Source of the DNA: Pocillopora damicornis
Lineage: Eukaryota
Direction of reading: 5' to 3'
NCBI RefSeq assembly: GCF_003704095.1
Contig: NW_020847208.1
Span: 310,001 to 374,000, forward strand
DNA: 64,000 bases
Shown here: in pieces, positions 1-35,781 of the stretch
How positions within the stretch are numbered: position 1 is the first letter of the stretch
How the letters are laid out: each line of letters begins with the position of its first letter
Notes under the pieces: generated by a model
The model's input: only the letters and a program-made list of their open reading frames with translations
Databases searched by the model: none
Told to the model about the DNA's origin: nothing
Position numbers and translations under genes: made by a program

Positions 1-102
1 AACTCATGAATAAGATTCTTTTGTACATTTCTTTGTGTTACACTCCATTTTATTCCTTTTATACTCATCATTTACCTCTCTAATCTACCTTTTCGTCTAC
101 AG

Positions 103-7700: not shown

Positions 7701-10053
7701 TTCTAATTCTTTCAGGTCGTGTTTGGCTTCAATCAGTTTACCTCTATGTTCGAAGTTAATCTGGCAGTGAGCGAGACCCAACTGATCGGTGGAGCTTGTA
7801 ACGCTGGTGCGGCACTCACACGCTGCAAGACAACACTGTTTCCGACTACCACAGCCAAAGGAGTTGAACGTGTTTTAGTTGTGCTTCTTGCTGGAAAATC
7901 CTCAGATGACGTCTTACCACCCACCGAGTCTTTAATAAATGCTGGTGTGAAGATAATCACAGTTGGAATGGGTTTATTTATCGATAGGTCACAGCTTTCG
8001 GAGATTGCATACTCTCAGTCGTATGTTCTAACTACTGACCTGATCGCTGGTTTACCAAGCATTAGCGGGAGCTTGGCTACGTTGATTTCCCAAGGTTCGT
8101 TTTTCTTCACACATTTTAACTGTTTTAGAACACGTAAGAACTTCACTTTTGTCAATTGGCTGAATATCGTCTCAGTGCCACGAGGGTCCTTTGTTGGAGC
8201 TGCATTTCTATAATCATCTGCCAGATAATTTTGTGCAAATATAATTTAAATTAGCTACACATTTTTTTTTTAAGTCCAACGATGAACTTTTTCCGTCAAT
8301 AACAGACAAATTTTGAACGATGATTCGCTGCTGGTGTGTTTATCTCAAAAAAAGGCAAGGACTTTGAGTACTAATCTAGTAATTTCTTCTTTCCTACAGC
8401 TGGTGGTATCACCTTCAGTGGAAATTCAGGGGCAACAGACAGTTAGTCCTTATTTCAATTACTTCTCAAATACTGATTCAAACTTTTTTCCATAGATAAT
8501 TAACGCTACTGATTGATCGAAAAAACCCGCGATGATATTTAACATGAAGTTTCACGAAGGAAGCCCATTAGCTGGCTCTTATTTCTTATAAGTTTTTCGA
8601 ATGTTTCATGTTTCGAATTTTTATTATCTATTTGCTTTTTTTTTCTGTTGTCTTTGTGTTCGCTCGCCGTCTGCTTTGATTTTTTTAACCAGCTCGAACG
8701 TGGCTTTCGTATACAGTCATTTCCTAAACACTTATCATACAACCATATGAAGCAATCATGTCCAAAAGGTGAACGAACGGCATAAAACTTTTATCAACAG
8801 CGCAGTTGAGGGGCAGAGAGGATCTAATCCCCTCTTTGATGGTTTAAATAAAATAATCCCCATTCCTGGAAACCGATGCATGCAGTCAGCATAAATGTAT
8901 TTTACAAATCACTTTTTGCTGACCAATATTTCTAAAGGTTGCTTCTCGTAATGTGCTGTTGATGTATTTGGACACCAGAGCTTCTTTTTTTTTCTAATTT
9001 GCTTCTTTTCTTTTCGTCTAGTAATCCTTGACCTGGGATTTATGATAGATGGATCCTCCGCCGTGGGAAGTGAGCAGAACTTCAAACAAATTATTAAGTT
9101 TGTTAGCGCTGTAATCCATGCCTTCCCACTTGGCCATTACAAAACTCGTGTTGGGCTGGTCGTGTGCTCCTCCGAAGATTTAGTAGTCTTCAACTTTTAC
9201 ACATACTTTGACATGTTTAGCATAGATCAGGCGTTGTCTTCAGTGAAATACCCCGGGACAAACTCGGCTGGGAAGCAGCTACTCTATCTCGGACGTGGCT
9301 TGGAGGTCTCCAAGCATTTCTTATTTGACAGCTCGTGGAGGAACCATGTCCCACGGCTGCTTATTATGGTGGTTGCAGGCAACTCCGCTGACAGCGTTGC
9401 TACCCCATCGATGGAGATCAGATCTTATGGAGTAGAAATCTTCTGTATTGGAGTAGGGAGTGTATCTAGTAATTGGCAACTCAATGCCATGGCCAGTTAC
9501 CCCTATAATGCGCATGTCTTCAAGAGTAGCTACGAACAAATGGGAAAGATTGCAGAACTACTTGTTACCAACATTTTGAGAGGTAAAAAGGAAATTTTGT
9601 CGATTCGATTTCCATTTCATTACACGCAAAGGGCCATACCGTCCTATATAACTTTGTTCAACCATAAACAACTTTTTGTTTTCATTTTCCTTCGAATTCT
9701 TTCCAGGTATTTTCAGGAATTATTGTCGCCCTTGTTATTGCGGTAAGTCGACAAGTCTATTTATCACGGTTTGGCTTAGTTCACGGTGCTTTATTAATTA
9801 CGTAAACAAATTTTGTAACTTTTCAACCAGTCATACTAACTAGAATGACCATTGCATTAAAGGTTATCGGGATTACTGTGGATACTGTCCCAGCTATTTA
9901 CGAAAGAAGAGAAGCGCAATCATTTCAACAGAAAACAAGTACGACTGCTCACGTCATTTCATTATTCATCCCCTGCCACGTCGTTATCATCATCGACCAC
10001 GCGATGTCCACTATAGTCGCCTCATCGGCGGACGTCGACACCAGACGGGTTGA
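103..10053 (+). CDS. Gene 1: 5'-truncated multi-exon gene for a mucin-stalk + 3xVWA protein with Cys/His-rich tail, presumably secreted
   Basis: After the micro-exon array (103-4751) the GT-AG exons are 5374-5528 and 5788-6163 (VWA1, CDLAFLVDASSS), 6583-6615 (AEQEVTTSGRG), 7025-7182 and 7716-8094 (VWA2, CDLAFMVDASSN), 8400-8441 (AGGITFSGNSGATD), 9022-9582 (VWA3, DLGFMIDGSSA), 9707-9742 (GIFRNYCRPCYC) and 9863-10053 (GYRDYCGYCPSYLRKKRSA...PRRYHHRPRDVHYSR...TG*, TGA 10051-10053). Phases join in frame. The start codon lies upstream of the window. Confidence 0.88.
741..777 (+). pseudogene. Degenerate micro-exon copy with no in-phase GT donor
   Basis: Acceptor 'ccaaacacag' precedes CA CCT CAA GTC ACA ACA CAA GTA ACA ACT ACA (APQVTTQVTTT), but 'gcttgcat' follows instead of AGT G|gt. 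Confidence 0.65.
2378..2395 (+). pseudogene. Degenerate micro-exon copy, donor GT>AT
   Basis: 'tctgcag|GA ATG AAA ACA ACG AGT G|atgca': an 18-nt GMKTTS unit followed by AT, not GT. Confidence 0.6.
2640..2920 (+). mobile_element. tRNA-derived SINE, cnidarian Nin/Deu-like family
   Basis: Recognised motifs 'tgtgttgtgttcttg', 'ctctccacccaggagtataaatgggtacc', 'atactcctagtcgcttc', 'gatgggccacttggctc' and a 'tttacc' tail. Family assignment is from recall, not a database search. Confidence 0.7.
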
Positions 10054-13525: not shown

Positions 13526-16500
13526 ATGAATGTTAACCTTTTTTTCGTATTGGCGTGGAACGTCCTTGTCATCTTTAAGATCTCAACAGTTTCTAGTGCC
13601 TTGAAAAGAGGTAAGGTCAAGATTCTAAGGCGACTATTGTTCAGCGAAATGCTATGTAATTACTTTTTAATCAGTAACAACACGCTTAATTTTCAATAAA
13701 GAGAAAAGTATCAAATTACAACTATTTGACTTATGATTAGCTGTTGAATGTTTTAATTTCAGGTTTAATCTTATTGTGCCATAATGGCTAAATTTTACCG
13801 CTGGTGCCATTTACTGTTACAGTATATTCAGAAACAAAATTAGACGCCACTAGTTAAGCGCAACGATTATGCTCTCTTGCCGGTATATGTTAAATCTGTG
13901 TCACTGCTTTTAGATCTAAAGGAGTGTATGATCTTATCACAGGAAAGGTTTTAATTCGGACTGCGTTTCAGATAAGCAACGAAATTTCGACCAACGCAAA
14001 TTGAAATTATACCTCGTCGAAGGCTCTCTTTTGTCTGCAACCAGAAATTGGAAAAAAAAAGGTTGCATTAGTGTTCCGTATACCCCAATTAGACCTGTCG
14101 ATTCAACTGTTTTCGCAACAATAGACAATCGCTGCGAAGTACTGTTAGTACTAGCTCAATTGATGCAGTTTCAAGCGAGCACATCTATTTCGGTTTGCTT
14201 TCTGGTGAATCATCTGACCTTAACCAAATTCCTTATAGAGCATGTGGTACCTCCTAGGATCCATGAACTCTGAACAGGAGGCAGCGAGCGACCAGGCTTT
14301 TTTATGTTTCTTTCATCATCGTTTTTGCGTCTCCTCAAAAAGCTAACTACGGACTAAAAGTGATACTTGATTCAAAAAGAAAAAAAGAAAATGTTGGTAG
14401 CTTAAAGAATTCATTCGAAATGCCATCGTTAGCTAAGGTAGTGTGTGTAGCCTCCCTTCCGCCTTGACATATGAACTAAAGTATAAGTCTAGTCTTCCCT
14501 TATAATTTAGGAACCCACGCATTTTCAATATACAGTCATTGTTTTGTAAAGGTCCTGCTGGTTAGTTTTATAAAAGAACTAATCGTACTGATCGCACATC
14601 ATAGTATTTGGAAGCTTCAGAGGAAACTTGCTTGGTCTGGGGAGTTGTTGTTGTTGGCTATATGCTCAGCGGGATGATGAGAGTGTATCCCACTTTGATA
14701 GATTTTTTCTTTTTTCTTTTTTTTTTTTTTAGCTCTAAAAGCTCAGAACGCCGAGAGCAGGTTTCTCATCGAAAGAATTGGTTTGAAAGCCGCTTATTCC
14801 ATCAAACCGCCTCACATTAAGTCATCACCTCTGGAGAGAAGACGAAAGCAACACTCAAAAGAAAAATCTCACTTTCAAACATTATCCGGTCATGTGGGAG
14901 TAAAGAGGCAATTTAATACACAAAACAGTTTGATTCCACGACCTTTTGATGTATCTTCAGTGAAAGGTAAAATGCCAATATAAATAGTGACATGTTGGCA
15001 GTTATCATCATGCATTATATATGAATATAACTGCGTTTAAAATGAAGTTCAGATTACATTTTAGAAGCCCACATGAAGTGCAGTTTTAATCAAATTGTTG
15101 TTTTTATTTGGAAAGTTATAAATATACCAGGAATGCTACATATTAAGAAGACACCTGTGACAACGATATAAGACAAAAAAATAAAACGAATATGACAAAC
15201 ACAGCAGAACAAACAAAGCAGAATTCAATCCCTTCAACGTCAGCCTCATTATTCGACTAGGATTTCGAGGCACTGGGTTGTTTATTTCACCGTAAAAATA
15301 GTGTTTTCTATCACCGAAGGCCAGAGAACTTTGTCTCCTTGAGCCATACCTTGAGATTGGTATTGAAATATTTGTAATATGATTTTTTTAGGCCACCCGG
15401 CTAAGATCGACGGAGAATTTCAGATTCGAACCCTTGTGTTTGTGTACTTTTTTAAACAAAAATTATTTTGCTCTTAAAGTGCTTCTCCCCAGCCAGAATA
15501 TTACGTCTGGGGATCAAAAGGCTGTCAGGTGTACCTGAGAAAAAGCTTAATATGTGAAGATCGAATTAAGCCGTCAGAAGTTATGGTTCCACTAACCTTC
15601 TATCTTTTGCCCAGCCTGTAAAACCCAAATAGATCTTGGATTCCTCATAGACGGCTCTGGAAGCATAGAGATGTACGGGAAAGGGAATTTTCAAAGATGT
15701 TTGGATTTTGTGAAATCTCTTACGAAAGCTTTTGTCGTTTCTCCCACGGACACAAGAGTTGGAGCAATTGTATTTTCGTCTCGAAGTGAACTTCAATTTG
15801 ACTTCAAACAATATAGCACGCAGCAAGATTTAGAAGCTGCGATAACTCGCATAAAATATCCAGGTTACAGGACAAAAACTGGCGCCGCACTCACAATGGC
15901 AGCAGACAAACTATTTAATGACGTTAGACAAGGCGTGCCACGCGTCCTTGTTGTCCTAACTGACGGCGCATCCAACGACGACGTAGTTAAACCGTCCGAA
16001 GAACTTAGAAACACAGGGGTGGTTATATTCTCTGTTGGCCTGGGGACACATTTTAGATTAGCACAACTAAATGCGATGGCAAGTGAGCCAAAAGCGGAAC
16101 ACGTGTTTACAGTTGATTTCCCCCGAATGGACACAATAGTTACAGCAATGCAGAAAACGTTGTGCAAAGGTGAGAAAAGAATTACAGCTTGGAATTCGCC
16201 ATTTTCCAAGAAATGGAAGTAACACGTGGCTGGCCCATAAAATCATGTGATTCTGATATCGTTGGGCTCTCTCCACGGTTTGTCATCTTACATTGACTAA
16301 ATGACTGAAAAATAGACTGAGAGACAGACTGGTTTACTGACTTAAGAACAGACCTTGTGACAATGTTAGAATTTTCAAATTTCTGTTTGAAGTATGAAGT
16401 TTTCAATTTGAACATTATTATTGACAGTTTTTTGTAATTTCATACAGCTGCTGTAAAGGCTGCCGCCGAGGGAACAAGTAAGTATACTTCAATTTTTCCC

Positions 16501-19500
16501 CAGTCTTAACGTAAATTACCCAATCATGTCGAGTCCCACTCTGAAAACTTCAAGCTTTTAAACCTGACCCGCAACACTTCCATCCAACGTATAGTAAGAG
16601 ACTTGCAGAGGGATTTCATGAAGAGCCTTGCCAACCGACGAGGTGGTGGTTTTTCAATGTCTCAGACCACTACTACAAGTGGAGGCAGCTCCTCGGGAGG
16701 AATGTCTGCTGGAGGTGGTTCTGTTTCTGGTTCCGTTCATGGAGGCTCTGCTAGTGCATCAGGTGCAGCCGGAGGCGGCGGTGAGTAACTTTCCGTGACA
16801 AGACAAGAATTTGACGCAAGATGATCTACGTTCACAACGAAGAAATGGAGAATTCGAACTTTATCCCGCCACATTGGGCAAGTGGATCACACTACATTAC
16901 GACAAAACATATATTAAAGGGACGCAGAAATACAACTGAGACAAGACACGTTCCTTGACAATGGATCCTAGGATATCGTCATGGTATCGCACCATACAAA
17001 TGACGCACAGATAACGGAAATAATCTGTGACATGTTTACATTGGATAGGGAATCCTAATGGATCATATAAACATCTCATTAGCTCATGACAGTGGACGAG
17101 GAACAAATAGAGGCCAATAGACGATACAGCTATGACCAAAACCCAACATACCCTACCACTGATATTGCGACTCCCTCGTCAAGCTAACAATGCTGTGCAT
17201 TAAATAGATGTATAATACGTGACATCGGTTTGTCTAATTTAGTTGCATATTTCTTCTGTTTATTTTTGATAATCATTTAATTTTACCTACCAATTTCATT
17301 TTTTTTCAGCTGGGGGAGCTGCTGGTGCCTCGGGAGGAGGTGTGTAGCTTCTTTCAAAAATTACAGTAATTGGGTCTTACTAAGAAAACTAGAGCTCGTT
17401 ATGCGAGTCTCTTCACGTCTGATTTTTTCCCTCTGCTGGAGGTATTTTCATTTTGTTTACCCTTTTCCATTCTTTCATGATATTCATTCTACAATTCATT
17501 CGTGGATCTAAGAGTATGGGCGTAAACTGTTCGATCCTCCCGTTCAATGCCACGGTTCTATGCCACCATTTAGTTATGAGTTTTGACTTTGGTATTAAAA
17601 AAATGTTCAGAAAGCCTTTGCTTGTTCAAATAAAGTTATGTTGAATTAAGGTTTTATGTGATGTTATAGTTGCGTTGCAAACCGGGCAGCATCGACTGAA
17701 GGATGGTGAGAACATTATACAACAATCAAGCAATTAGAAAATTTTTAATCTTCCTGACCGTTTTTTTTTGTTTTTTTGCCAGGAGGATGTGATCTTGCCT
17801 TCATGGTGGATATTTCATCAAGTATTGGTGGCGATGCGAACTTTCAACTCGTCATGAAATTTGTCATTAGCATTTTTCACTCATTCACTCTTGGCGGTGG
17901 AATACGCTATGGTCTAGTCACGTTTGGAAGCAGTGCTAAGGTAAAAGTGAATTAAGGTTACCCTCTAAAGGTGCTATGCATCGAGTCAAGCACCCCTTAT
18001 CTAAAAAAGGAGCAAAAGATTTTATAGTTGCCAAAACATTTGTTGAATGTAAATTTTACCCACGAGAATACAAGTGGCCGCCGTCAAGAGGTATCTTCGA
18101 GGAAATCAAAAACAAAACCGTGAAAGCATAGTGTTGATTTTCCAAGTGTGCTAAGTGAAATACAAAACTTTGTTGAGAGGTTGGATTCTAAATGCATAAC
18201 GTCATCGCGATAGATACGAGTGTAACTGACGGCCATCTTTAGTTTCGAGTAATTATCAAACGCCATGGATTCAACAAGTGATGTTGTAGGGCTTCAATGA
18301 ATAAGTGTTTCTATTTAATGTAATCTTTTTTTGCTCAAGTGAGAAAATTACACATATCCTAGTTTAATAAGTTCATGACCTTGCAAAATTCTTTTTACCT
18401 TAGGTGGTCTTTGGATTTACCCAGTATTCCTCAATCTCAGAGATAGACTCGGCAGTTGGCAGTGTCACATTAATGAGCGGTGGCTGTACTGCAGGTGCTG
18501 CACTTTCTCAGTGCAAGTCATCTCTCTTCGAGGGTGACGCCGGAGGGAAGGCACGTGTCCTGATTGTTCTAATTGCTGGAAGTTCTACTGATGACGTTTC
18601 AAGCGCCGCTAGCTCATTGAAAACAGCCGGAGTCAAAATAATTGCTGTTGGAATGGGCAGCTCATTTGTTCAGTCACAACTTACTTCCATGGCATTCTCT
18701 TCATCCTACGTCCTTACCGCCGCTTCGTATGGAGGTTTAGCTGGCATTACCGGAAGCATTACCTCACTAATATCTCAAGGTTTTTGAGAGTTTGTCCCTA
18801 TTCTTTATTGTTTCTTCGATTCTAATTTAGGGACACTTTCTTTTCGGGTAATTTGGTATTATCAACTGAGTTGATAACGTAAATTAGCCACCTTAAAGAG
18901 TTTAAAAGCGGCGTTTCGAGCGTTAGCTTTTGGTCGGAGCGAATGACATATGGCTTACGCTCAAAACGTCACTTTTAAACTCTTAATGGTGGCTAATTTA
19001 CGTTATAAACTCAGTTGATGATATTGAATAACCCTGTTATACCCTCCCACCGACGCAGCACCACAATTTCTTCAGAAACTTTCCCCTTTTATTCACTTTC
19101 CCTTCGACCCTGATTTTAATTTCTTCTAGGCTTTCCCTCAGTGCAGACAAGCAGGGTTACTATGAACCAAGGGATCATCGAAAAAAAAAATTTAAAGCTT
19201 CACTCAGAATTTCGTGTTCTTTGATATGCACATATGTTCAAAAGGATTTTTTTAAAACTTCATCGATTTTACATGAATCCGACAAAAATATCATTGAAAA
19301 CAGCCTATGATATGCTACAACGCTGCAACCCCTCCTTTTCCTTATCTTTGAATTATCGTTTGCTAGAACTGAAGTATTTAACTTTATGCTTAGTCGTGCA
19401 CTGATTTGATACAATCTTGAAATTATAGCCGGCGGCATTACCGCTAGTGGAGGTGCCGGAGGTGCCGGAGGTGCCGGAGGTATGGACTCATACGAATTAT

Positions 19501-22500
19501 GCTTGTCATCCTTTCCATCCTCGATCGTGTTTGTTTTGATTTCGTTGTTTTTGTTGATGTTGTTTGTGATTTTGCTTATTTGGTGTTTTTGTTTAACTTA
19601 CTAGCTAGATAACTGAACTGACGGTATCGTACTTCTATTATAGACATCATGCTTTAAGACAGGCTCCATTAACATCCGAAAATCAACCCAACTAGAGGGC
19701 CTGAAAAAGCAAGTTACGGTTGAGGGAACTTCATTGAAGATGAAATTTATTCCCATAGGCTAGTCGTGGGTCTATTGAAGTTTCTCTATTTTCTTATTCC
19801 TCTTTAAGCGCTGCATGTGTAAAAAGCATCATAATTATACATGATACATGCGCAAAACGCCAGCACTCCACTATTACAATTATTTTGCTTGTCATAAAAA
19901 TAATAATAAGTTTAACGTAAAAGTTCTGAGTTAGATATTGATTCAAGCCTTTGCTATTCCAGTTTAGTAACTGGTTGAACTTTCATACTTTTTAGGTTCC
20001 TGTGATCTGGCCTTCATGTTGGATGCCTCGGACAGCATTCAAGGGGAAGCAAACTTCAAGTTGTGTATTGAATTCATCTTGGTAATATTTCGTGCCTTTG
20101 GTATGAGTGGCGGTATACGCTTTGCTTTAGTCCTATTTGGAAGTTCAGCTCAAGTTGCATTTGATTTCAGCAAATATTCTTCAATCTCTGAAGTTGAAAC
20201 GGCCCTTGGTCAGGTATGTGTACTATTTTATTTGCATTATCCCATAACACTGCATCTGAAAGTGTAAATTAGTTTGATTTAGCGAGAGAATGACGAGGAC
20301 ACTTGTCGTGAAACTCAAGGATAAATATACCCGCGTACAATTCAGATTAAATTTAAAACACTACGGATCAAATAAGGACACCTGGCCTTCCGAAAGCGGT
20401 AAGGAATGTCTCACAGGAGATAAATCCCAGTCAAAGAGGTGATCAAAGTAAGAGACCGGGTTTAAAAGGGAATTATCTTATAGATAAACTTTGACAAATA
20501 GGTGATCAAACTGGAAGGGATTTTTTTAAAAATAAGAAAAATTTTGAGTGCTATCGTCTCGCAGCTTAAATTGCTTTGTAATAGCTGCGTATAAAGATAA
20601 CTGTTGATTCTTCTTTTTAAACCTATAGATTAAACTCGTCGGAGGATCTTGTGCCGCGGGAGCGGCGCTTTCCACATGTCAATCGTCTTTGTTTGCAAGC
20701 GCTGGGGGAGGTGGAGGTGCCGCTGCCGGTGGTGGTGCTGTAAGTGGAGGGGCAGCAGCTGGGGCGAGTGTTTCTGCGCGCCTTCTTGTAGTAATGATGG
20801 CAGGAAAATCAACAGACTCCGTCTCAAGCTCATCTGGTGCACTGAAACAAAGTGGTATTAAAATCCTATGTCTTGGAATGGGAGGAAGCGTCGATGCGGG
20901 TCAGATGAAAGAAATGGCTTCCTCCGCCGAGTATTTTGTCTCAGTAGGATCGTTTGCAGAACTCTCTGGGTTCTCGCAGCAGTTTATCAGCTTAATTGGA
21001 TCAGGTGAGAAAGGAATATGATTAACTGCGAACACGAAGTAATAAAGATCCATTTCGATAAGATTACCAACGCTGTTCGCAAAACATCGCACAACACATT
21101 AAACAATTGTTATCTGTCCCGGAACACTTTATAAAATCGTGATTAGGTAAGGATTACATATTTGCGACAATGTTTTAAATAATATAAAATAAGACTTTTT
21201 TGGAACGATAGTGGTGTACTGAGAAGCAAAATAGTTGTCTTCCACGTGGTTTCCGTCTGGAAAGGCATCTTATAGAGTCAGCTTCAGTCAGGTCTAAAAA
21301 GGCTGCCAAAGTATTCTAAACTTTTCCAAAACAGATTAAGGCGTATGTGATTAATTTCTATCTTAAATAAGCTGGAGGAATTTCAGCCAGCGGAGCAGCT
21401 GGAGGAGCCGCCGGTGCAGCTGGAGGCGCCGCCGGAGGAGCAGCTGGAGGTGCCGCCGGAGGAGCAGCTGGAGGAGCAGCTGGAGGAGCAGCTGGAGGAG
21501 CCGCCGGTGGAACAGCTGGAGGAGCTGCCGGTGGAGCTGGAGGAGCCGCCGGAGGATTAGCTGGAGGATTAGCTGGAGGAGCAGCTGGAGGAGCCGCCGG
21601 AACAGTTGGAGGAGCCGCCGGTGCAGCTGGCGGTTTAAGTGCTGGAGGAGCAGCTGGAGGAGCAGCTGGAGGAGCAGCTGGGGGAACAGCTGGGGGAACA
21701 GCAGGTAGGTGCATTAGTTCACTTTGCATATATGAGTTTTGATACAAATTATATCGGGTAGTGTGCCATTTAGGGTAGGTGTGCTAACGAGGTTGATTTT
21801 GACGCCAACCATAAAGCCATATTTACATTTGACAAGATCTTTACGATACGAGACATTTTCTGACATCACAGCTCGAACGAACTTGACTTTGTACTCAAAA
21901 TGAAACGAAGCTTCACTGTACCAAAAACGTGTGACTAAAATTCCAACTAACTGAATGTGAAAATTGCATTCTGGATACACTGTTCTCTCCTGCTGCATCA
22001 AAAAGAAAAATTCGAATTTGCAGTATTAATTGGTGACTTTTATAGCATTCTCATCAAGATCAACATACATTTTGGAGCGTTAGCCATTTTTAACTACTAA
22101 GGTGGGTGTCGACACACCAGAATTTGTGATAGTATTGTATTTACTGGTCAAGACTGTGAATTAGTCAGACGATGGACGGATTGGATGGTCTCAGTGTTGT
22201 AACATACATAACAGCTAAAGATATGAAACTCTTCGTATCGCTTTAAATGGCCAATATTTTGTAACTCTGTTTGCGAAATAGGTAAGCAGGGCTTTCAAAC
22301 AAGTCTGCTTCCACGTAAGACGACTCTCGGAAAGGCAAAACAAGAAGAAGCAGGCCGTGGTACAGAATGATAACAAATACTCCTTAGTATCCCCTTCCTA
22401 TATCTGAGTACAAGAGGCTCGCATTACGACGTGAAAAAAATATGATATTTATTCCTTGACATTTATCTTGTCAATGAGGATGCTGATAAATAACGGCTTC

Positions 22501-25500
22501 AAAAAATCGTCGTTTTAAAACAAATTAACATGCTTTTTTAAAGGAGCAGTCGATCTGGCTTTCATGCTTGATGCCTCTAGCAGTGTAGGTGATGATGCAA
22601 ATTTCCAGCGGTGTCTAAACTTTGTTAGAGCAATCTACAGCGGCGTTACCATTTCATCAGCGGCATTTCGCATAGGATTGGTCTTGTTTGGCGCGTCCGC
22701 CTCGGTGTCGTTTGACTTCAGCAAGTACAGCTCAGCATCTGAAATTGACGCAGTTATTATAGGAATGAAAATGATTGGTGGAGCGTGTGCTGCAGGTCAA
22801 GGTTTAAGTACATGTCAAACTCAATTATTCGCCCAATCACGTCAAAATGCTATCAAAGTCCTGTTGGTGATGATCGCTGGAAGATCAACAGATGACGTGT
22901 CAGGCGTAGCAGGAGCTTTGAAAAGTTCTGGGGTCAAGATCTTCTGTCTCGGGATAGGAAGTTCTATTGAAAGAACTCAGCTGATATCAATGGCTAACTC
23001 AGAATCGTACATTCAAGTAGCACCCGACTATAGTCAGCTAGTATCATTGTCCAGTCATTTTTTATCACTGATTGGTCAGGTAGCTGCCGGTAAGTAAATT
23101 TTGTACCTACTTACAAAGTATACTGTAAAGGAGGGGAGTCGATTTTACATTGGTAACCCATACCACAAGTGAACGATATGTGTTTGAGGGTATCTCATGG
23201 TCCGTGACAAATGTAGTAGGCTTGGTGCCACACAAAAGCAGCCATGAGCAAAATAGCGGGCGGATATTCAGGATTTATAGCAAAGGGGAACACTTGGAAA
23301 CTATTTTTGTTAAAATAATAGCAAGGCTGCCACCACAGGTGCAGGAATGACCGCTGGAACAAAAAAGAGAGGGAAGAATTGTACTTGGGTAGGCAATAAT
23401 GCAACTGCAGGTACCTTGACATTCATTCCTGGAGAAGGTAGGAGAATGGATGTCCTTGCTGGATGAGGTACGAGAAGAGGAACTACGGGTGGTGCAGAGG
23501 GACAACTGCACTTAGGAATCATACCCAATAAAAGTTCCTCACTAGGGTGGTAGGACCATTGGATCAGAAGACGGTGTAAACGGGACTTACTAGGTTGTCA
23601 CCAGGCTGAGCTTCAGTGGTGAAATGACAGGAAGCCTAGGTGGAATAGGCGTGGGTTTCACGGAATATATGCATCTTGGAGACAACGTAACGAATGCCCC
23701 TTGCAGGTACAGGCATGACCGCTGTAGCAACAGTAGATGAAGTTGCAACAGCCACAGATCTTCCCAGACCTATCCTAGGTGGAAGCGGAGTCGGAATCAA
23801 AGTTTTCTTTTGCAGAGAAATATTACAATATATTGTCTTGTTGTTTCATTTTCATGGCCACTTTCTGCATTATTCTCAGCATCATTTACAAAACGATGAT
23901 CATTTTCCCTTCTTCCCCTCTCCTCTTCCAAGTAACAACTTGAAGTCCCACTCGGTGTTTCTTTTGAATCCTAGCCTGTTTAGAACACTCTCTCGTTACA
24001 GTTCTGGCTTGAATCGGCGTCTGCGACATATGGAGTTAGTAAGGTCTTTTCAGGGAGGCTTATCGAGAGAATCGTGAGGGAACATGTAGAAAATGAATGA
24101 TGAATGAATATGACAAACGTTTGAATTCATGCTTCAGTGATGGAGAAATAAAAACAAATTTTCTAGGAGTATGTCCTTGGAAACGAAACGTTTAAATGAA
24201 AACTTCGTTTCCGATACTCAAAGTGAATATGAGAATGGTCTAGTGTTGCATTTTTAACATTTGTACTGATGCAAAAAGGTCAAATTAAAACTGTCACAGC
24301 AGGTCGTCATGCCTATGCAGAATGCATAGAAACTAAGTCTAATGCACAATATCCTCCAAATCAACTTCTAACAAAACCCCTGCAGCAATATCTAGCGAGT
24401 GCGGCTCCGAACACAATTGCAGCTACGACAAAGAATTACAAATTACAACACTGCAACGTTACGTGACATTTCACTGTAATATATAACATAACGTTTAGCT
24501 TCATCGTGACTTTACATGGCTTACTTAAACATTACAAGACAACATGATATTGATTTCAGAGTTTAACATTGCAATACAGTATAATCGAATAACGTACCCA
24601 GTAATTACCAGGACGTTTTTTGTGCGCTTTGAAACATTTAGGGGCGAAGTCGCTTCTTTTATTGTCCTGGAGTGTTCGTAAAAAAGCTGCGTAGGTTACT
24701 TCAGTCAGGCATTTGATATAGAAAAATCTATAAACATTTTAATCAGTCTTACTTAACTTATGGACACTTAAAGGGCATGATAAATCCGTCCCGTAATAAC
24801 AATATCTTTTATTCAATAAAGCCGGAGGGATGGCAGGTGGAGCTGGCGCTGCCGGAGCAGCAGGGGGAATTTCAGGTGAATTGACAACCACAAAACTATT
24901 ATTAAATTTAAGGTGAAGCCTATCGGAGCAGTTGTGTTCATTTCTATTTGAACTTTCTTATGTACCCTGGGTGTAGTGATCTGGTTTTTAGTAACATAGC
25001 ACATGAACCTCACACTCGTATGAGGTTTTTTTCGAAAATGCATTGAGAAGTTTTAAAGCTTTGGTATTGACTTTGAAAGTTTAAAGAGTCCATCAAACCA
25101 ATTTTGAACTACTTCCATTCAGACAACAGAATAAGGGATGGGAAATTGAGCTCAATATCAAAACGACCGATTTTGCATGTGTATCTAGTGATGTCTTGAT
25201 TAATATTTGGTGGTCTTTCGGTAAATAGTCATATTAGAGACGATTAACTTTTTTTGAGTGGACTGAACGTTTTCCATCGCTTTCATCTCTCCTATTCAGG
25301 TGGGATTGCTGGTGGAGCTGGAGGAATGGGCGTTGGAGGATCCATTGGAGCAGGTGGAGCAACAATAGGAGGGGGTGGTATGTTAAGAATGTATGATATT
25401 CTTTACACACTTTCACAATTCATCAATAATTGCCTCCCTTGCCATATTTGCTTTTGTTTCTCAGTTGGTATTGGCGTGCAACCCGTGATTAGGAGACAAT

Positions 25501-28500
25501 CATTTTTTTTTCCCATTATTTGCACTACTGTTCATTTCGTTTTGTCAATCCTTTCACACTAAAAATATAAAAAAAAAACAAGAAAAACTTTGCAGTGTAA
25601 AAAAAGAAACGACACGATACATTTTCTTATTTTTCTGTTAGGAGGAGTTGCAGGTGGAGTCGGTGGAATGGGTGTTGGAGGTTCCACAGGCGCTGTTGGA
25701 GGCTCCACAGGCGCAGTCGGTGGTGCCATGGGTGGAGGAGGAGGTGAGTTGAGCAACTGCTTATTTCAATCTTTCAAGGAACAATTTTTCGTTCGAGTGG
25801 ATCCTTTTCTAGGGCTGTTTTCTCAGAAACTTTCGTCTAAGTTTATCCGAGATCAAATCAGTCAGTCACAAGAATATATAACACGTATAACTGTATTCTC
25901 GAAAAAAATCTATAAATACAGGCGAAAAAAAGGTTCAACTTTTGATTCGTCAAACAGTTGCAGATTATTAAAGTTTCCTTTTCATTTCACCATCTCCTAT
26001 TTCCTCCATGAGCGATCCTATTTATCCATCCAGATTAGATGTTAATTAAATACTCTCCGACAAGTCAATAAATAATCTAAGGACGAAACTTGACGGGTTT
26101 AAGTACTCTCAGACTGCCTCGACCCTGTGTATGTATACGTGGGTATCTTACGTGTACCTGAGTGTATCAGAAAACTGGCCAAGAACTTTATACTTGGCCT
26201 CCCCGTAAGTCGTCCTTGGTTAATATTCAAGGAATAGGTCAGAGGAGGAATAAAATGGAAACTTTTAACAGATAATTGATCCAAAAAGCTTTCAATGATC
26301 ATCAAGGGAGAGGATAACAATTTACAGTCCATTTCGGCACTGCCAGTATGTAGACCCGGATTCGCGATACACGAATCGTCACTTTTTAATTTGTGCGCGA
26401 CGCCAGCAAGTCGAAATATGCCCGTAACCGTTACACTCTCGCTGCAACCTGTAGTGATTCATTCAACCGCATTCCAAGATGGGAAATAATGAACGATTCA
26501 TGTTTTGAGACCCGGAGTCTACAAACTGCACTAAAACTAGCCGTCAAATTCTAATTCTATTATACAGGAGTAGGAGGGGTAGGTCCTGGTTGTTCTGTAA
26601 GACCGCTTCATTTGCCTCACCTCTGTGGATGTCAGCCGTTAGCGCCCATTTGCGGAACGCAAAACGTTGGCGAAGGTAATCTTTTTATGCCACCTAACCA
26701 TAGTAGAAAAAAATCGTAAAAATCAATTATATTCAGATTGAAAAACTACCAACAATGTTTACAGAAGAACAACTGACGGCTGACATTCACATCTGCAAGT
26801 TACTTCTGCATTAATATCAGCGGCTTTACCTCGCGATAACAATAAGAGACGTTGAAAGGACGTATGTGTATGTCATTTGAAAAAATTTCTCCTGGAAACT
26901 GGCGCCCACCTATAGGTGATGCCATGGCTGAGGTAAGAAAACCACGAAGATCTGCAATATACTCTGTCGAAAACAACATATCGATATCCAATGGAACAGA
27001 GAGACTAATATTTGACCGGGGAAAGGTGAATGCCACCAATGCAAACAACTCTCTCAAACATCCAGACACGAGGAAACATACGGTCCTTCGGATAACAGTT
27101 GTAAAACACGGTCGAAACCAAAGTGGCGAAACACCCCAAGTTCTAACTGTAACCAATGATTTTAAACAGGGAAATATGAGAGAGACTGGAGCTAATGCCA
27201 GGAGCAAATCTTTAGATATCATGAAGGGAGCAAACGTTCCCATTTCCTTTCAAGTCAGCGGTAGGGGATCGGGCGAAAAGGACGTCTTACTTAACGACTT
27301 ATACGGCGGCAAGCAAATTTCTTTTGATGGGCGTTCTTCAAATGAAAGCAGTGAACACGTACCACAACAAAAAGAGGCTTCTGATTTATCAGCTCAAAAC
27401 CCGGATAAGCAGCAAGGTAAAACAGATTCGAATGTGTTATTGGAGGCGAAGTTGAATCCGCTTAGAATAGGTATTCAGCTGGATGGTGACAAAACTAGCA
27501 AAGAAGAGTCCACTAATCAGCCTACTGAAAGCATTTCTCTTCAAGAAGTTTTAAAGGATATTGATGATACATCACAAAAAGCGGATCCTTCACTGGATGA
27601 AAACAAGGGTAAAAAAGAGAACGCAGTTCTTATAAGTTTAAATAATGAGAACGTAAAAGATGACGATTCGCATGGCACGCAACAACATGTGGTCAAGGAG
27701 GACGAAAACCTGGGTAAGTTACATATACAGGCAACGAGCAACAAAGAAAACAAAAATGGAACAGAAGTAAATACGGCGGGGGTTTCCATAACAACGGAGA
27801 GCAAGGGGCTTCAAACGAATGGCCTTATGAAAGTTCTTTTGACCAAGTTACTTGGAAGCGACATAAAAGATGCATTGAAAGAAAAGGAATCAGAAGCGCT
27901 AAAGCCAACAGGTGGCAGAAGAATTTCCTCTTCATTAGATATGGCATCCACAACTGCTGCTGGTACTTCTGTAGAATCTCCTCCTGGAACAATGAAAGGT
28001 GTGGACACAGCCGAAATGAACAACAACGCAGGAGCAGTCAACAGTATTGAGCCACCTTCAATGCACCAAACTGGTCCTCAGTGCCTCGGAGGAGAGCCTG
28101 AACCGGACCTGTTGCCTACTACCGGAACAAGAGTTCCAGGAAATCTTCGTCTACCAGGCGGGAGGGACTGCTCTCAGGGAATGGAAAGTTTACCCTCTTC
28201 AAACGTAGCGTCGAGTTCACCAACAGGCATGGTAATTGACTCTGCACCAGGAACACAGCAAGCAGTCGGAAATGGAATGCCCCCTCCCGCCCAGGTGGTG
28301 CCAAATCCGCCTCCCCTTGTTCCCTCTAACCAAAGATTTGGCTCCACAACGCCAGCCGGGGTTGGTGTTGAATCACCGCCTGGTACCATTCATGCGGTTG
28401 GTACCAGTATTCCTGCAGAGGGCATCAGTGAATTAGGTGATAATGGTAAGATAAGATGGTGAAAGAAGCATGCGCATGGACTCTCAAAGCGATGACTGCA

Positions 28501-31500
28501 TGGTGGCTGACAAGACTCCTCTAACATACTGGGCGTAAAACGCATGAGACTCTCTTCTACTTGAATTCAAGAGAAGACCCAAGACGCATAAAGTTTTCAA
28601 CTCTACTATTGCATCTAACTTTTATTATAATATCACTTGTTACCTTGGGCTGCAAGTGCAAAATTTGGCTCTCGCCTACGTTTCTTCTAACGCATTCGCA
28701 AAAACCCCAAATACTTTCTTCATTATATTGCCATAATGCAATAACAAAGGCACTGATTAGTCCATCAGTATTTAATATCAGCATATCTGTAATGAAAACT
28801 AAAATAACATGAAAGTAGACTCTGAAATAAAATACGCATAAATTCGTGTGCTGCCGTTTGCTGTTTAGTGAGTTCCAATTTAACGATGAAAAGCTAAGTA
28901 CTTACCTCATGACAAGCCATAAAAATCAAAGCATATTTGCTCACATCTGTAAACTAAGCGACATTTATAACATAAGATAAAAGTACCCTTGAGTGAAGAT
29001 AAAATACAGTTCTTACTAAATAGTGGTTTGTGCATATTAAAGAGGATGTTGCTGCGGTTTCATAATAATGTAACGTTAACCTCATTCTCACTGATATGCA
29101 ATTAACATGCTGTTTTTCGCTTGCTAAAACGCAATAAGGAATGTTTCAATTTTTTAGGAGAAATAGGCTATTATTTTTTCTGGCTCACATAGATAGCATT
29201 TATAAGCTACTTCTTCAGGTCCTAAACGATATTTGATTTGAAAGCAAAGTCGTTTTTTTCTCGTGAATTTCCGAATAATTAATAAGCGCGGTAAAATAAA
29301 ATTGAAAAAAAGAAGAAAAAGAAAAAAAATCAAATTTCGTCGTTATAAGTTTCTGTTACTAAACAGATGCTCGAGAAATTATAATCTGTTGTTCTCATTT
29401 ATTTTTTAATTTTCCCTAGGAGCGTCAACAGGAGTTACTGGCGGGGTAGGGGGAAGCATTGGAGGTGGCATCGGAGGCGCGGGGGGTATGGTAGGAGCAG
29501 GCGGAACAAATATTGGAGTCGGAGGGGGAAATATAGGGGGTGGACTTGGCGTTGGAGCTGGAGGTATGACTGGAGGAGGTGGCGGTGTTGGGGCTGGTGG
29601 AATGGGTGGAGGCGGCGCTGTTGGAGCTGGTGGGATGGCTGGAGGTGGTGGAATGACAGGTGGAGGCATGGTCGGGGGTGGCGGGATGGCGGGTGGTGCC
29701 ACGGTTGGAGGCGGCGGAATGGTGGGTGGAGGCATGGTCGGAGGCGGTGGGATGACGGGTGGTGGTATGACTGGAGCCGGTGGGATGACGGGTGGTGGCG
29801 GAATGGTAGGAGGTGGTNNNNNNNNNNNNNNNNNNNNNNNNNNNNNNNNNNNNNNNTATCGGTGCAATAGGTGGGGGTATGGGTGGTATTGGGACTGGCG
29901 GTGGAGTAGGTATCGGGGGAGGCATCGGTGGAGCTAATATGGGTGGAGCTGGAGCGGGAAGTGTAGGAGGAGCAAGAGGAATGGAAGGTGAGCACGTAAC
30001 AACACCTTAAATATTTGATTTCGTTGTTCTGATTTTAATATCTAGACACAAAAGTCATGAATGACTGGTTAATTCTTCTCTCTTGCCATTTTCTATAGTC
30101 GTATTGGATTTGGCGTTCTTGGTCGATGGGTCTTCAGCTGTTGGAAACGAACAAAACTTCCAGCAGTTACTCAACTTCGTTAGCGCCGTGACGCATTCAT
30201 TCTCCATCCATCACGACATGACTCGCGTCGGAGTTGTTGTTTTTTCTCTTGAGGCTTTTGTCATCTTTAACTTTCACACATACTTTGATATACAAAACAT
30301 CGATCAAGCACTGTCTTCTGTGCAATATCCTGGAACAGATGGTCCAGGAACATATATAGGACGGGGTTTGCTTGTTGCAAAGCACTACCTCTTCAGTGCC
30401 TCAGGAAGAGGACATGTGCCGAGAGCCATTGTTCTTCTTGCTGCCGGAAGATCTATTGATGATGTTATCACACCGTCTATGGATATCAGGTCGAATGGAG
30501 TGGAAATGTTTTGCGTGGGTATCGGCAACCTTTACAGTAAATTACAACTTCACGCAATGGCAAGTTTTCCACACAGTGAACACATTTTCAGGGGTGATTA
30601 CTCACAAATGGGGCGAACTGCACAACAAGTCGTCACCAAGATATTAAAAGGTCAGAATGACACTTTTTTAATCAATTTGTGAAATGAATAGTATATGCTT
30701 GTCTCGTCGTTGAAGTTATTTCCTTCATGGGTTGCGACGTTTCAACCGATTCTAACAAAATGTGCATTTATCTTAAACAGGCATTTCTGTTCACTTCTGT
30801 CGACCCTGCTTTGACGGTGAGTTCGATAAGAACATTTTAATGGAAATTCCTAGAGGTAAATTATGGTTTTTTTTAATGTATGTAAAAAACGTGTACATAT
30901 GTTATAGGGCATCAGGAACTGTGTGATTACTGTCCAAGTGAATTTCAAGATGACGATGAAGTGGAAGAGGGCTTCAAGCGTCACCATCATCATCATCATA
31001 GGCATGATAAAGTCCACGTTCAACCGTTTGATGGTGAGCGGAGACATTCCAAGAGAAAACGACCCACTGCCAAAATCAGTGGAGATTATGAAGTCAAGCA
31101 ATTAGCCGGACAAACTATGGGCCGAAAAACACATGAAGAGCAAAGCTATAACGCTGACTCATTTAGCAACACCAATGATGCCGTACACCCCACAACAAAT
31201 CCTGACACAGATTATTATGGTGAATACAAATTTGATGACGGAAAAATGACCGTGGAAGACAATGGTAAGTATTCCTAAGAAAGTATAAAGAATTACCAAT
31301 AATTCAAGATCAGTTCAGTTTACACGTGAACAAAAATTTCTTTGACAAATGAAATTTCTCCAGGAATTTTGGACTCTCTGCTAGATCTTAGGCTTAAGAT
31401 AATCAAGTATTATTTGTTGCCGCTTGGTATTCGAATATTTACCACCCGTCTAATAAACGAAGCTAGCACGGTCAACCAAGCGAGCGACTTCGGTTATCTC

Positions 31501-32506
31501 ACAGTTTAAACTGGCCTGGTTTACTGATCGCTAATCAAATGGCTCTATAAACGCAATCGCTACCCTTTCAATACTTATATTTTAGTATGTGAAAAGGAAT
31601 GAATAACCATTAAACTAATAAATGATCCAGTTTACGACCAATTATAATTTTCTATCTATACCGTTCCGAAGTGGAGGTAGCTTTAGTCAAAGAATAATTA
31701 AAGTGGGCTCATGATTTATTTCTATAATGACAGACTGCAAGGACTACTCAGATGACTGCAACGACTATGCGTCACGTGGTTTTTGTAGTGAGTATGCTCC
31801 GACAGCCAGCATAGGAACCATAAACATGATGTGTAAGAGAGCATGTGGTACCTGCTCATCCAATAGAATGTGAGTGTACATCTCCGCTGCCTTCAACCCA
31901 GTAACTAGTATAAAGATAATTAAGAAACACCTAGTTAAAATCCTTTGGCGCCTTTGAAGGTAATTCGTACCAGAGCAAGCCAAGTATTCTTATACATCAC
32001 GGGCAGCTTTTGTTTCAGGCGAAAATTTTCAATTTCAAGGTTGAGTGTGTAAGTTATACAATGTCTCTGAGTGCGAGCAAATACAGACTGCCTTTCTTCA
32101 ATAATTTTAGTTTCATGATCAGCGACATAAAATGCTCAGGTATGAATCATTCACCTTCTTTCTCTGAGAGTTGTTCTCCCATAATACAATTTTTTTTTAA
32201 TTTCGGTCGGCTTTTTAAAGAAATTTGTTATGAACAATATTGCATCTTAATGCACGCCCAAGAAACTATTTTATATTACATAACTGTAAAGTAACACAGC
32301 TCATCGAACAAACAATTTTTGTCGAAGATATTGTATTCTGAAAGCGCTGATTGTGCTTTTTTTTTTTCTCCTTATTTTGAAGGCCCAAAGAAAAACAGGA
32401 TACGTACGAGCTTAGCGAAAGAGATCCTTTTTATAAGAAAGAAGAAATTGAAAACGCCAAGGATCAAAAACCGAACCACCTGAAGCACCGTTTAAATAAA
32501 CTGTAA
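13526..32506 (+). CDS. Gene 2: secreted ~2270-aa protein with 5xVWA, Gly-rich linkers, poly-His block and C-terminal ShKT; tandem paralog of gene 1
   Basis: Coding exons: 13526-13610 (signal MNVNLFFVLAWNVLVIFKISTVSSALKR), 14733-14966 (basic propeptide), 15615-16169 (VWA1), 16448-16477, 16595-16780, 17310-17339, 17783-17940 + 18404-18779 (VWA2), 19429-19479, 19996-20213 + 20629-21004 (VWA3), 21372-21704 (GAAG repeat), 22544-23089 (VWA4), 24822-24875, 25300-25377, 25642-25743, 26568-26675, 26916-28445, 29420-29987 (contains N gap), 30099-30650 (VWA5), 30781-30816, 30908-31264, 31734-31869 (ShKT) and 32383-32506 (TAA). Junctions are GT-AG and phase-compatible, except that frame cannot be checked across the N gap. 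Probable 5'UTR exon donor at 13392. Confidence 0.85.
15615..16169 (+). CDS. Gene 2 VWA1 exon, canonical MIDAS, collagen VI/matrilin-like
   Basis: DLGFLIDGSGS...RTKTGAAL...VLTDG: DxSxS, T and D all present, with flanking Cys at both ends. Confidence 0.9.
18846..19085. mobile_element. Penelope-like-element-derived inverted repeat with degraded hammerhead cores
   Basis: Inverted arms 'gggtaatttggtattatcaactgagttgataacgtaaattagccacc' / 'ggtggctaatttacgttataaactcagttgatgatattgaataaccc' plus tail 'cccaccgacgcagcaccac'. Homologous to 49868-50124, 54172-54346 and 57568-57668. Confidence 0.7.
21372..21704 (+). repeat. Coding Gly/Ala tandem repeat exon (GGAA)n, ~12-nt period
   Basis: Repeated 'ggaggagcagct/ggaggagccgcc'. 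A 333-nt phase 1-1 exon. The minus-strand PPAA ORF is its antisense. Confidence 0.85.
26916..28445 (+). CDS. Gene 2 1530-nt low-complexity exon (510 aa)
   Basis: Lies within ORF 26852-28462. Acceptor 'cctatag|GT GAT GCC', donor 'AAT G|gtaag', phase 1-1. Charged N-half, Pro/Ser/Gly/Thr C-half with repeated VESPPGT. Confidence 0.75.
29420..29987 (+). repeat. Coding Gly/Met repeat exon (GGGM[T/V/A])n spanning a 39-N gap
   Basis: 'ccctag|GA GCG TCA...' to 'GAA G|gtgagc'. About 60% Gly with periodic Met. Confidence 0.8.
29818..29856. other. Assembly gap; others at 38723-38743, 62046-62145 and 63709-63808
   Basis: Runs of N. Confidence 0.99.
31734..31869 (+). CDS. ShKT (ShK toxin-like) domain exon of gene 2, missed by the ORF track
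   Basis: DCKDYSDDCNDYASRGFCSEYAPTASIGTINMMCKRACGTC: six Cys, starting CxD and ending CxxxCGxC. Confidence 0.88.
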
Positions 32507-33199: not shown

Positions 33200-35781
33200 T
33201 TAGATGCCCACTTCCTTCTCTGGTTCTGAAAGAAACACAAAGGTAACACCGCAAAAGACAATGATGTGGAATTAAAAAGACTCAGAGGAGAGAATCATAA
33301 AAATGTAATAAACTTGCCTTTTTTGACTGTTAAGCTGGTACACTACAAGTCAAGAAAATTAATACCCTAGAAGGTTAGCTGCAATCTAGCAATTGCAAAA
33401 AAGAAGCTTGAAATGTATTTTAGGCATCGACAGGATACGAACCCTCTCTTCCCAGATACTAGCTTGGCGCTATTATTAACCGAAACTAAGAAGCCAAACG
33501 TTGGTCGCATGGAAAATTAAATGGGGTTCTTCTTTCCCCGTGGAGATATCTGATCACAATTTGTAATGAAATAAATTTCATCCGACCTGCCTGCTGAAAA
33601 TCAAGTACATCCATTGACCTGACACACGTAATTACTTATAACTAACGGACGGCACCAAAATTGACTTGAGTTGATAAGATTATTTTATGAGTGCCAAAAC
33701 CTTCCGCGTAACACTTATTCTTAACATAAACAAGGCCGACGCTAAAAGAGCTAAAGGAAAACAAAGATAAAGATCAGTCAAAACCTAGAGCCAAACTGAG
33801 GATGGACCGATCAAGTGATAAATCATAAAAAGCAATTGAGTAGATCACGAATCTCTATATTTTATTTATACTCACCTTCTAGCAAGAGGTACACGAAGTT
33901 GGCGTTGGCCTTCCCAACACACTCGCCTTCATCATTGATATTACACATCGTGAAGTTCTTACCGATGCACAATTGGGATTCTCCATGAAGAGAATACTGG
34001 TCACATGACTCTGGACCCGACCAACATTCTCCATAATGCTGAAGACCAAACATAGTGTATCCATGCTGAGAGGCAGTCTGGGCACAACGGCACGCGAGGC
34101 TAGGAAATGATTATTTTTCTCGGTCAAGTTTAGAAATGAAGATTCACATTTTAATTCCATGCGGGCAAATTGAAAAGCATAGATTACAGAGTATTAATTT
34201 GTCCTGAGAACCAGATATATAACTTTGAATGAATTTTAATTAACTGAGAGCCACTTTAAGAAAGACAATGCTTACTTCAAAGGTTGCGAGACTGTTTTCA
34301 AACTTGAAGAGAATTTCAACACAAAGACTACAAGGAATAAATAAAATGCTCAAAAGTTCAAAAGCGCGCGCATAAATATATCTTTCGCAAGAAAGTCATG
34401 ATGCCGATAATTATGCTTTCCCACATTCATATCAAGTTATTCGTATTCATTAACTGTACAAACCCATGCATGTAAGCTTCCCAGTTCTTCCAGTCGATCT
34501 GTTGACTTTGGGATGACCTGCCGCGGTCATTGATAAGCAGTTTAGACATGGATCTGGACCATGTCCTGTCCTGGAAGCATCCTAACTTGTAGAAGGATCG
34601 CTCGCATGTGACATGCTGACCATGCACTAGTCAAGAAAAGGAACGAATTGGTCAAAGTAAAGCAAATGATTTGAACCTCATCGAAAGGGAAATGTTTTTC
34701 AATCTGCCAAATTAGCTACAACAAAATTCACCTCATTTTTTAAGTAGGATTCGGTTAAAAGAAAAACGCGAAGTCGTTTACTGAAAAAACAAGTAGATCC
34801 TTGTATCCGCTAGTTCCCATTTTAAGCTAATTTAATCTTAAGTTATATATGTAGTCAATAGAACTACGATTATCAGGTTTATTCTATGATGCTTGAGAGC
34901 TGCCAGCGGGAAAAAATTAGTTAAACATATTTAGATATCAGGTAAACAATTTTTATGAACGACTCGAGAATTGTTGTTATCACGATTTATCGCCCCTTTT
35001 AACCCTTCCATTGATTTCCATGAGATTCTATTTGCTACTTTACATTACAGGGTGCATATTCAGCGAACAGTTATCACGCAACAACCCCTATCTACGTCGA
35101 TATTTGTCCCATGACTATTTCCGTCGAAAACAAACAAAGCCGGCGGGAAAAAGCCAGCTTAAGAGTTTTGCTTTTGCATCTTTCTTACTTCAAATGAAAG
35201 AGTGACCAACTCAAAAAGTCAACGGAATTTCTTGTCAACGCGCGATACGAAAATGAATGGAAGGGTTAGAAAATAAATAGCCTCCCTTCTGGTTGGCTGA
35301 TATGTCGGCTGATAATGTTCTTGGCTGAGAGATTGTCCTCAGAATTTATTTGCACTTGAAGCTTCGATTCTCGGCCAACTTTTCGTTTTTCGGACAATCT
35401 CTCAGACGCGGACATTGTCAATGGACGTACCAGCCGCCTAAAGGGGTTCGTCTACTGATTAATTCATCACACCCAAGAGAATATAATCTCTTTTCATACC
35501 TCAAGAAAAAACTTCTTCCCCTTACTTAATTTCGCGATAACGTAGAACAACAACAAGCGAGTTAAAAAAAACGTTTAGGGAGAGAGGGGTGAAAATGAAA
35601 ATGATGTTAGGATCTAAATGGTGTCACCACCGTAATTTTGATGCCAGTCGCCGGCCGATTTATAAATGTTGTGCCGAGATAACCCCTTTACGTGGCAAGT
35701 GCAAAAGACAAAATTACAGAGTCTACCTGAAGAGAATGACACTCTGAAAACCAGGAATGCAAGGAAAAACAGCCTCATCAT
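33200..35781 (-). CDS. WSC-like Cys-rich small secreted protein, paralog A
   Basis: Exons 35781-35727 (signal MMRLFFLAFLVFRVSFSS), 34626-34464 (VHGQHVTC..KLGCFQD..IDWKNW), 34099-33876 (LACRCA..FGLQHYGECWSG..CVGKANANFVY) and 33225-33200 (EPEKEVGI*). The TAA overlaps AATAAA. 5'UTR donor near 36988. Confidence 0.88.

Follow-up and report, generated by a model that had tools for sequence, protein, structure and literature searches.

A multi-VWA, glycine-rich gene of the coral Pocillopora damicornis encodes a candidate structural precursor of cnidocysts

Positions 13526-32506 of a 64,000-nucleotide stretch of the coral Pocillopora damicornis (RefSeq assembly GCF_003704095.1, contig NW_020847208.1, positions 310,001 to 374,000, forward strand; the window, whose numbering is used below) had been interpreted, in a sequence-only reading, as coding for a large secreted protein of von Willebrand factor A (VWA) domains, Gly-rich blocks, a poly-His block and a ShKT domain, of possible elastic or adhesive use. 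Is this region one gene, and what material might its product form, and where? We find one real, expressed, conserved and alternatively spliced gene, and its product is, on balance, probably a disulfide-linked, non-collagen VWA/Gly-rich structural precursor of cnidocysts, contributing to the wall or thread of nematocysts or spirocysts. Spirocyst and anthozoan capsule materials are, to our knowledge, poorly defined at the protein level, and no paper combining spirocyst, von Willebrand and glycine was found in the literature searched. The gene is conserved from corals to an anemone, its Nematostella counterpart can be knocked out, and a concrete question can thus be put: does a non-collagen VWA/Gly-Met polymer supply the stretch or the stickiness of cnidae?

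Within the sequence examined (12,500-34,500), the plus strand yields a model of 24 exons (Table 1) in which all 23 introns are GT-AG and no internal stop occurs. The predicted protein has about 2,273 aa, 17.7% of them Gly; 13 X in this total stand in for an assembly gap of nominal length (29818-29856). The hydrophobic N-terminus (best 15-mer hydropathy 2.33, on which the signal peptide call rests), the basic pro-region with ERRRKQ at 14834-14851 and VKR↓Q at 14900-14911, and the layout of VWA beads on Gly-rich strings in one secreted-type, non-collagen protein all bear out the sequence-only reading; to these can be added a 510-aa polar exon, two conserved Cys micro-exons, skipping of the VWA4 exon, the assembly gap, conserved dibasic sites and the loss of metal sites from most VWA domains. 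Part of the 5' half is present in 22 public runs, 12 of them recorded as RNA; coral and marine samples make up most of the labels. Splice evidence comes from contigs of four runs in three studies, one run being RNA by guess; such contigs speak for presence only, and no additional isoform was inferred from missing cover. Among the 15 listed of 44 joints, 10 of the 23 model introns are matched, nine in all four runs and one in two of the four, and the joint 21702->24820, present in 4/4 runs, skips the VWA4 exon, which is covered by other contigs, so that included and skipped forms are both present. The acceptor of exon 5 agrees with contig-end distances, and RNA extends past the stop codon into the 3' untranslated region, to at least 33200. 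Four of the 15 listed joints belong to a repeat in intron 8, where an 82-nt inverted repeat (18846-19034), 85% complementary and matched by hundreds of unrelated contigs, is likely a miniature transposon. Intron 13 holds, at 23300-23800, minus-strand Pro-rich open stretches with short direct repeats, possibly a mobile-element remnant.

A split into two genes, between the Gly-rich exons (to 25743) and the polar exon, is highly improbable, although several observations invite it. Thirteen of the 23 introns, including 25743/26568, 26675/26916 and 28445/29420, lie outside the 15 listed of 44 joints, splice joints across the split among them; the Stylophora database model begins in that region; and a full-length homologue was found neither among 896 candidates of 1,863-5,000 aa, which held just vertebrate collagen-type multi-VWA proteins, nor, with a VWA4 query, among 2,989 candidates of 318-2,000 aa, both being weak negatives. 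However, the exons around the split are all phase 1-1, with neither a stop codon nor a signal peptide between the halves; the Stylophora model opens inside a Gly run and passes from it to the polar exon, VWA5 and ShKT; two other coral loci (L009 and L012) share the exon order across the split; and in run X4 the contig cover at the start of exon 17 is 0.31, against 0.30 expected from the upstream contig, a weak hint. It is from phase, the Stylophora model, the shared exon order and this hint that continuity is read. The polar and Gly-Met exons have little or zero contig cover in runs X5 and X8.

Counterparts are found in Stylophora pistillata (XP_022785540) and in Nematostella (A7SV31/A7SV32; XP_001624544/5), where the two models together share the polar region, Gly-Met block, VWA5, Cys tail and ShKT. 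The gene is misnamed in databases, the Stylophora entry, a partial model, being called 'cell wall protein IFF6-like' and the Nematostella entries 'predicted protein'. Of the eight loci to which a metagenome scan reduced 164 pattern matches, five are clear orthologues at 87-90%; the others are a broken paralogue, an orthologue at greater distance and a chance match. In L009 and L012 the Gly exon is followed, as in the window, by the Cys exon, the RR↓S polar exon, the Gly-Met block, VWA5, the Cys tail and KR↓HH, with ShKT likewise in L012 and L013. In L009 and L012 the four-Cys micro-exon, missing from the Stylophora database model, is 78% and 83% identical, and the polar exon about 52%. Among 1.84 billion representatives searched with HMMER, multi-VWA proteins dominate the best 150 rows, with five single-domain matches at 46-65% identity. 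The broken paralogue (L014, 400-3800), a cluster paralogue from another coral sample whose VWA exons contain stops and a change of frame, is apparently a pseudogene; the more distant orthologue (L015, 734-2254; 73%, 63%) has an intron within VWA5 and His-rich sequence downstream.

The five VWA domains claimed earlier are confirmed by Pfam PF00092 in 12 exon pieces (140.6, 32.7+61.2, 41.1+34.7, 100.5 and 108.4 bits), and a motif survey finds the full DxSxS-T-D metal ion-dependent adhesion site (MIDAS) in VWA1 only. In VWA2-4 the site reads D-S-S-C-A, Cys replacing Thr and Ala the last Asp, and in VWA5 it is a degenerate D-S-A-T-A. At 96% identity with Stylophora, 65% with Nematostella and 87-90% with five coral loci, VWA5 is the best conserved VWA measured. 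Two copies of VWA5 plus the Cys tail (residues 908-1124 of Nematostella A7SV32), modelled together, gave an uninformative self-association score of 0.00 with the alignment unused, and in an Atlas comparison the VWA matches were generic VWA clusters, under 0.9.

Between the beads lie Gly-rich blocks, for which the counts (19 GGAA, 9 GGGM and 18 GGM) uphold the (GGAA)n and (GGGM)n blocks first noticed. Since the longest (Gly-nonGly-nonGly) run is only 3 triplets, no collagen helix is expected, and the earlier warning that a collagen VI label would be wrong stands. The (GGAA)n block is 47% Gly and 42% Ala, without Pro, and the window's Gly-Met block is 58% Gly and 9% Met, with Pro, Tyr, Lys and Cys all absent. 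In 9/9 sequences the Gly-Met block keeps 57-69% Gly and 9-12% Met, without Pro, Tyr or Cys, over lengths of 116-249 aa (two cut at the 5' end) and with drifting sequence, a pattern that fits selection on composition. Judged by the Pro/Gly rule for elastomers, the disordered threshold would be reached or passed by the Gly-Met block, whereas the GGAA block, below it, could form sheets. The Gly blocks contain neither the Tyr nor the Lys that resilin- and elastin-type links need, so that any covalent links would have to involve cysteines. Spider silk and fibroin are marked by poly-Ala crystalline blocks and spidroin terminal domains, whereas the longest poly-Ala run here is 3, the blocks lack Pro, Tyr and Lys, and no spidroin Pfam match was found in the 12 exon pieces scanned; the term silk-like is therefore weakened, the conserved Gly-Met block being closer to abductin. 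Scallop abductin is Gly-Met-rich and Pro-poor, with about 60% Gly and about 10% Met, and is alike in composition, GGMGGG occurring 8-9 times in the Nematostella orthologue and 0-2 times in corals; four papers in the literature searched contain both this motif and the name abductin. However, abductin is small and stand-alone, whereas the coral block lies inside a multidomain precursor and is free of Tyr. The likeness is convergence, not homology, and the composition suggests an abductin-like elastomer.

The polar exon opens with an RR↓S dibasic site common to the window, Stylophora, L009 and L012, the Nematostella model opening with a poly-Arg run, and it has two conserved Cys. It carries three copies of a [VI][ED]S[AP]PGT motif (27971-28387), the last almost identical in Nematostella, the remaining polar region aligning at about 21%. 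A search of the coral's own genome with the motif region matched only itself, the exon has no Pfam and no Atlas match, and its predicted fold, from only 4 sequences, has a mean pLDDT of 28.5, below 50 throughout. Further cysteines lie in the Cys micro-exons, in the CxxC-x7-CxxC tail and as spare residues of the VWA domains, and directly after this tail comes a conserved acidic dibasic site (KR or RR, ↓H).

Where, then, might the protein be made? The available part of a Nematostella catalogue lists three adjacent genes, vWFA-ShKT-1 (NV2.8258), vWFA Gly/Gln-rich (NV2.8259) and vWFA-ShKT-2 (NV2.8260), with the alternative labels NvvWFAShKT-1/-2 and NvvWFAGGP; the two vWFA-ShKT names stand in its in-silico matrisome table, and two of the three genes are marked cnidarian-specific (PMC12549020). 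As in the coral gene, where both occur in one modelled chain (ShKT under the Pfam cut-off), vWFA stands with ShKT or with a Gly-rich region. These genes, known by name and expression, are compared here by description only; both pairings are thereby already catalogued in Nematostella, and a domain combination that had not been recognised from sequence has precedents (PMC12549020). No functional study of the vWFA/ShKT pairing was found in the literature searched, and the main texts contain neither the orthologue accession numbers nor the NV2 identifiers. Over 110 cell states, the rows available give peaks of 4.78 in spirocytes for NV2.8258 and of 0.50 and 0.88 in nematocytes for the other two, no non-cnidocyte state exceeding 0.16 and all mucous-gland states lying below 0.01; where most of the other vWFA rows shown have mesoglea proteomics values, these rows have none (PMC12549020). 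The coral cluster contains three matching gene types, so that the Nematostella orthologue is likely one of NV2.8258-8260, and the resemblance of this cluster of VWA(+ShKT) genes to the Nematostella cluster suggests the cnidocyst reading. The order of the coral genes (two neighbours, then the present gene) is compatible with NV2.8260-8259-8258, the Gly/Gln-rich gene in the middle, and equally so with the reverse. Tentatively, and with less confidence than in the general reading, the coral gene could be the orthologue of the spirocyte-specific NV2.8258 and its product, a disulfide-knotted, cleaved chain of VWA beads with abductin-like Gly-Met springs, tuned by exon skipping, a main component of the sticky, stretchy web of the spirocyst thread; if so, it would give molecular access to the way spirocysts adhere, and a new design for a marine elastomer.

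The cnidocyst reading allows the construction of a scheme in which a cnidocyte would secrete the precursor into the growing capsule, where convertases may cut the conserved dibasic sites to release three pieces: VWA1-4/Gly, polar/Gly-Met/VWA5 and a His/ShKT tail. Free of metal for the most part, the VWA domains could serve as stiff, sticky beads, and the Gly-Met block as a disordered spring, with disulfide cross-links possibly formed by the Cys micro-exon, the CxxC-x7-CxxC tail and the spare VWA cysteines, and skipping of the VWA4 exon may tune the number of beads. Several points weigh against this scheme. The link from A7SV31/A7SV32 to the NV2 genes is drawn only from domain content and clustering, and the best-hit labels for NV2.8258-8260 differ by just a few bits. 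The closest paralogue has Thr-rich, mucin-like linkers, which would fit a role in mucus or at a surface too. No match to the GXGQQ elastic repeat or to the canonical six-Cys cysteine-rich domain CxxxCxxxCxxxCxxxCC occurs in the model. Hydra Cnidoin has GXGQQ-type repeats and canonical Cys-rich domains, whereas the coral protein has neither, and five VWA domains besides. The two proteins are alike in that Cnidoin is a Gly-rich, elastic nematocyst protein thought to be disulfide-linked (PMC4321713).

Of the three sites proposed earlier (cnidae, mesoglea or attachment tissue), cnidae remain the likeliest, with mesoglea and attachment less supported. It is rather unlikely that the gene encodes a matrix or attachment protein of epithelium or mesoglea, in which VWA1 would bind collagen and the chain would form collagen-VI-like beaded filaments without a triple helix. 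VWA1 does retain its full metal site, and in the PDB two matches to VWA5 reach E<=1e-15, namely collagen VI alpha3 and PTMP1 of mussel byssus, the latter likewise a VWA matrix protein; collagen VI alpha3, the best match, also has VWA strings with degenerate metal sites, and several collagen VI domains carry the same degenerate 'LL.AG.S' motif as VWA5. However, domain identity to collagen VI alpha3 is about 30% and the coral protein has no triple helix, the gene is conserved in an anemone, which has no skeleton, and the candidate Nematostella counterparts, if the mapping holds, are cnidocyte-restricted and, in the rows available, without mesoglea values. Less probable still is a gland-cell polymer of mucus or surface coat, multimerising by terminal disulfides, in which Gly-rich linkers would replace the Thr-rich ones of the upstream neighbour. 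This paralogue shares VWA classes and Cys tail with the present gene and has Thr-rich micro-exons and C-type lectin exons besides, and all 7 N-glycosylation sequons of the model sit in the polar exon; yet the available mucous-gland values for all three Nematostella genes lie under 0.01, and the Gly blocks, the first linker excepted, have few Ser or Thr for O-glycans.

A byssus-like adhesive cross-linked by His-metal coordination, which the sequence-only reading had raised, now appears quite improbable. The KRHHHHHHRH block it noted does lie at 30976-31005, and a His-rich run follows KR in 5/5 covering coral sequences (window, P0002, L009, L012 and L013), but in Nematostella it is reduced to HH, and because the conserved acidic dibasic site directly precedes it, the run probably sits on a separate, cleaved C-terminal piece with ShKT. 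Mussel preCols have a collagen core, Gly-rich flanks and His-rich ends; the coral protein differs in its lack of a collagen core and its single His run after the likely cleavage site, and its Gly blocks have no Tyr. There is, finally, only a slight chance that the gene is a venom precursor releasing a ShK-type potassium-channel blocker, although the Nematostella genes named vWFA-ShKT stand under the heading 'Putative Venoms' in the part of the catalogue available (PMC12549020). The ShKT domain has its six Cys downstream of dibasic sites, at 20.1 bits against a Pfam cut-off of 20.9 (15.3 bits in A7SV31), and, described earlier as terminal, is near-terminal, since about 41 residues follow it. 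ShK-type Kv blockers use a functional Lys-Tyr dyad, and the coral segment aligned to it holds neither Lys nor Tyr. The domain is, moreover, 100% identical to Stylophora, 88% to L012 and L013 and 68% to Nematostella, which is not the mark of a fast-evolving toxin, and it accounts for 2% of the protein.

Table 1. Features of the 24-exon model (positions in the window)
Feature	Position	Strand	Content and evidence
Exon 1	13526..13610	+	ATG at 13526 and predicted signal peptide; sequence, hydropathy
Exon 2	14733..14966	+	Basic pro-region with RRRK and VKR↓Q; sequence, RNA contig across exon
VWA1 (class A)	15615..16169	+	Pfam 140.6 bits, motif survey, two RNA contigs
Exons 4-6	16448-16477, 16595-16780, 17310-17339	+	RR site, Gly/Ser/Ala linker; splice joint 17337->17781 (4/4 runs)
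VWA2 (class B)	17783-17940, 18404-18779	+	Two exons; Pfam, motif survey
Gly linker exon	19429-19479	+	Sequence, RNA contigs
VWA3 (class B)	19996-20213, 20629-21004	+	Gly/Ala loop inserted within domain; Pfam, motif survey
(GGAA)n block	21372..21704	+	111 aa; splice joint 21002->21370 (4/4 runs)
VWA4 (class B), cassette exon	22544..23089	+	Pfam 100.5 bits; RNA contigs
Gly-rich exons 14-16	24822-24875, 25300-25377, 25642-25743	+	54% Gly
Four-Cys micro-exon	26568..26675	+	No Pfam match; conserved in L009, L012
Polar exon	26916..28445	+	1,530 nt, 510 aa; RNA contig spans whole exon
Gly-Met block	29420..29987	+	Assembly gap 29818-29856 inside exon; joint 29985->30097 (2/4 runs)
VWA5 (class C)	30099..30650	+	Pfam 108.4 bits; degenerate metal site
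Cys micro-exon (36 nt)	30781-30816	+	Revealed by RNA joints
Exon with CxxC-x7-CxxC tail	30908-31264	+	Acidic stretch, KR↓His6, polar spacer; RNA joints (4/4 runs)
ShKT domain exon	31734..31869	+	Pfam 20.1 bits; alignment
Last coding exon and stop	32383..32506	+	Stop codon ends 32506; RNA contig

The gene is the last member of a VWA gene cluster spanning about 110 kb of the contig (C3843). Immediately upstream, a paralogous array (window 1-10050 and G000:C3843:279500-310000), a candidate single gene ending near 10,050, holds 19 VWA domains (6 of class A, 12 of B and 1 of C), C-type lectin exons (one Pfam-confirmed, 54.8 bits), many Thr-rich micro-exons of 24-40 nt, and a tail of CRPCYCG/YCGYC followed by RKKR that is similar to the Cys tail of the present gene. 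The array resembles the Oculina 'cochlin-like' protein XP_078375014. A midpoint-rooted tree of 40 VWA domains, with the neighbour's split domains represented by their second exons only, resolves the three classes with supports of 98/100, 99/98 and 100/100, and pairs the gene with this neighbour to the exclusion of the Nematostella VWA5 (98/93). The neighbour is thus likely a coral-lineage duplicate, with the earlier Gly-Met/ShKT layout preserved in the present gene.

Two additional VWA genes, whose ShKT domains score over the Pfam cut-off, lie beyond this array. One, a gene-like array at G000:C3843:244600-262800 (L002-L004), combines ShKT exons and eight divergent VWA exons with a Cys6-polyproline-Cys-rich exon (261421-261933) which we take to resemble capsule proteins. 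The other, at G000:C3843:265400-277200 (L004-L005), carries three ShKT exons, long polar exons rich in Gly/Gln/Ser/Pro and a single VWA of very divergent sequence, and is a candidate counterpart of the Nematostella vWFA Gly/Gln-rich gene. Downstream, three related minus-strand Cys-rich exons (33879-34193, 38282-38611 and 42457-42771) with LAC.CA and GLQ.Y.ECW motifs form a repeat-domain gene converging on the VWA gene, and two similar stretches about 4.4 kb apart (47719-48138 and 52125-52523) mark a local tandem duplication.

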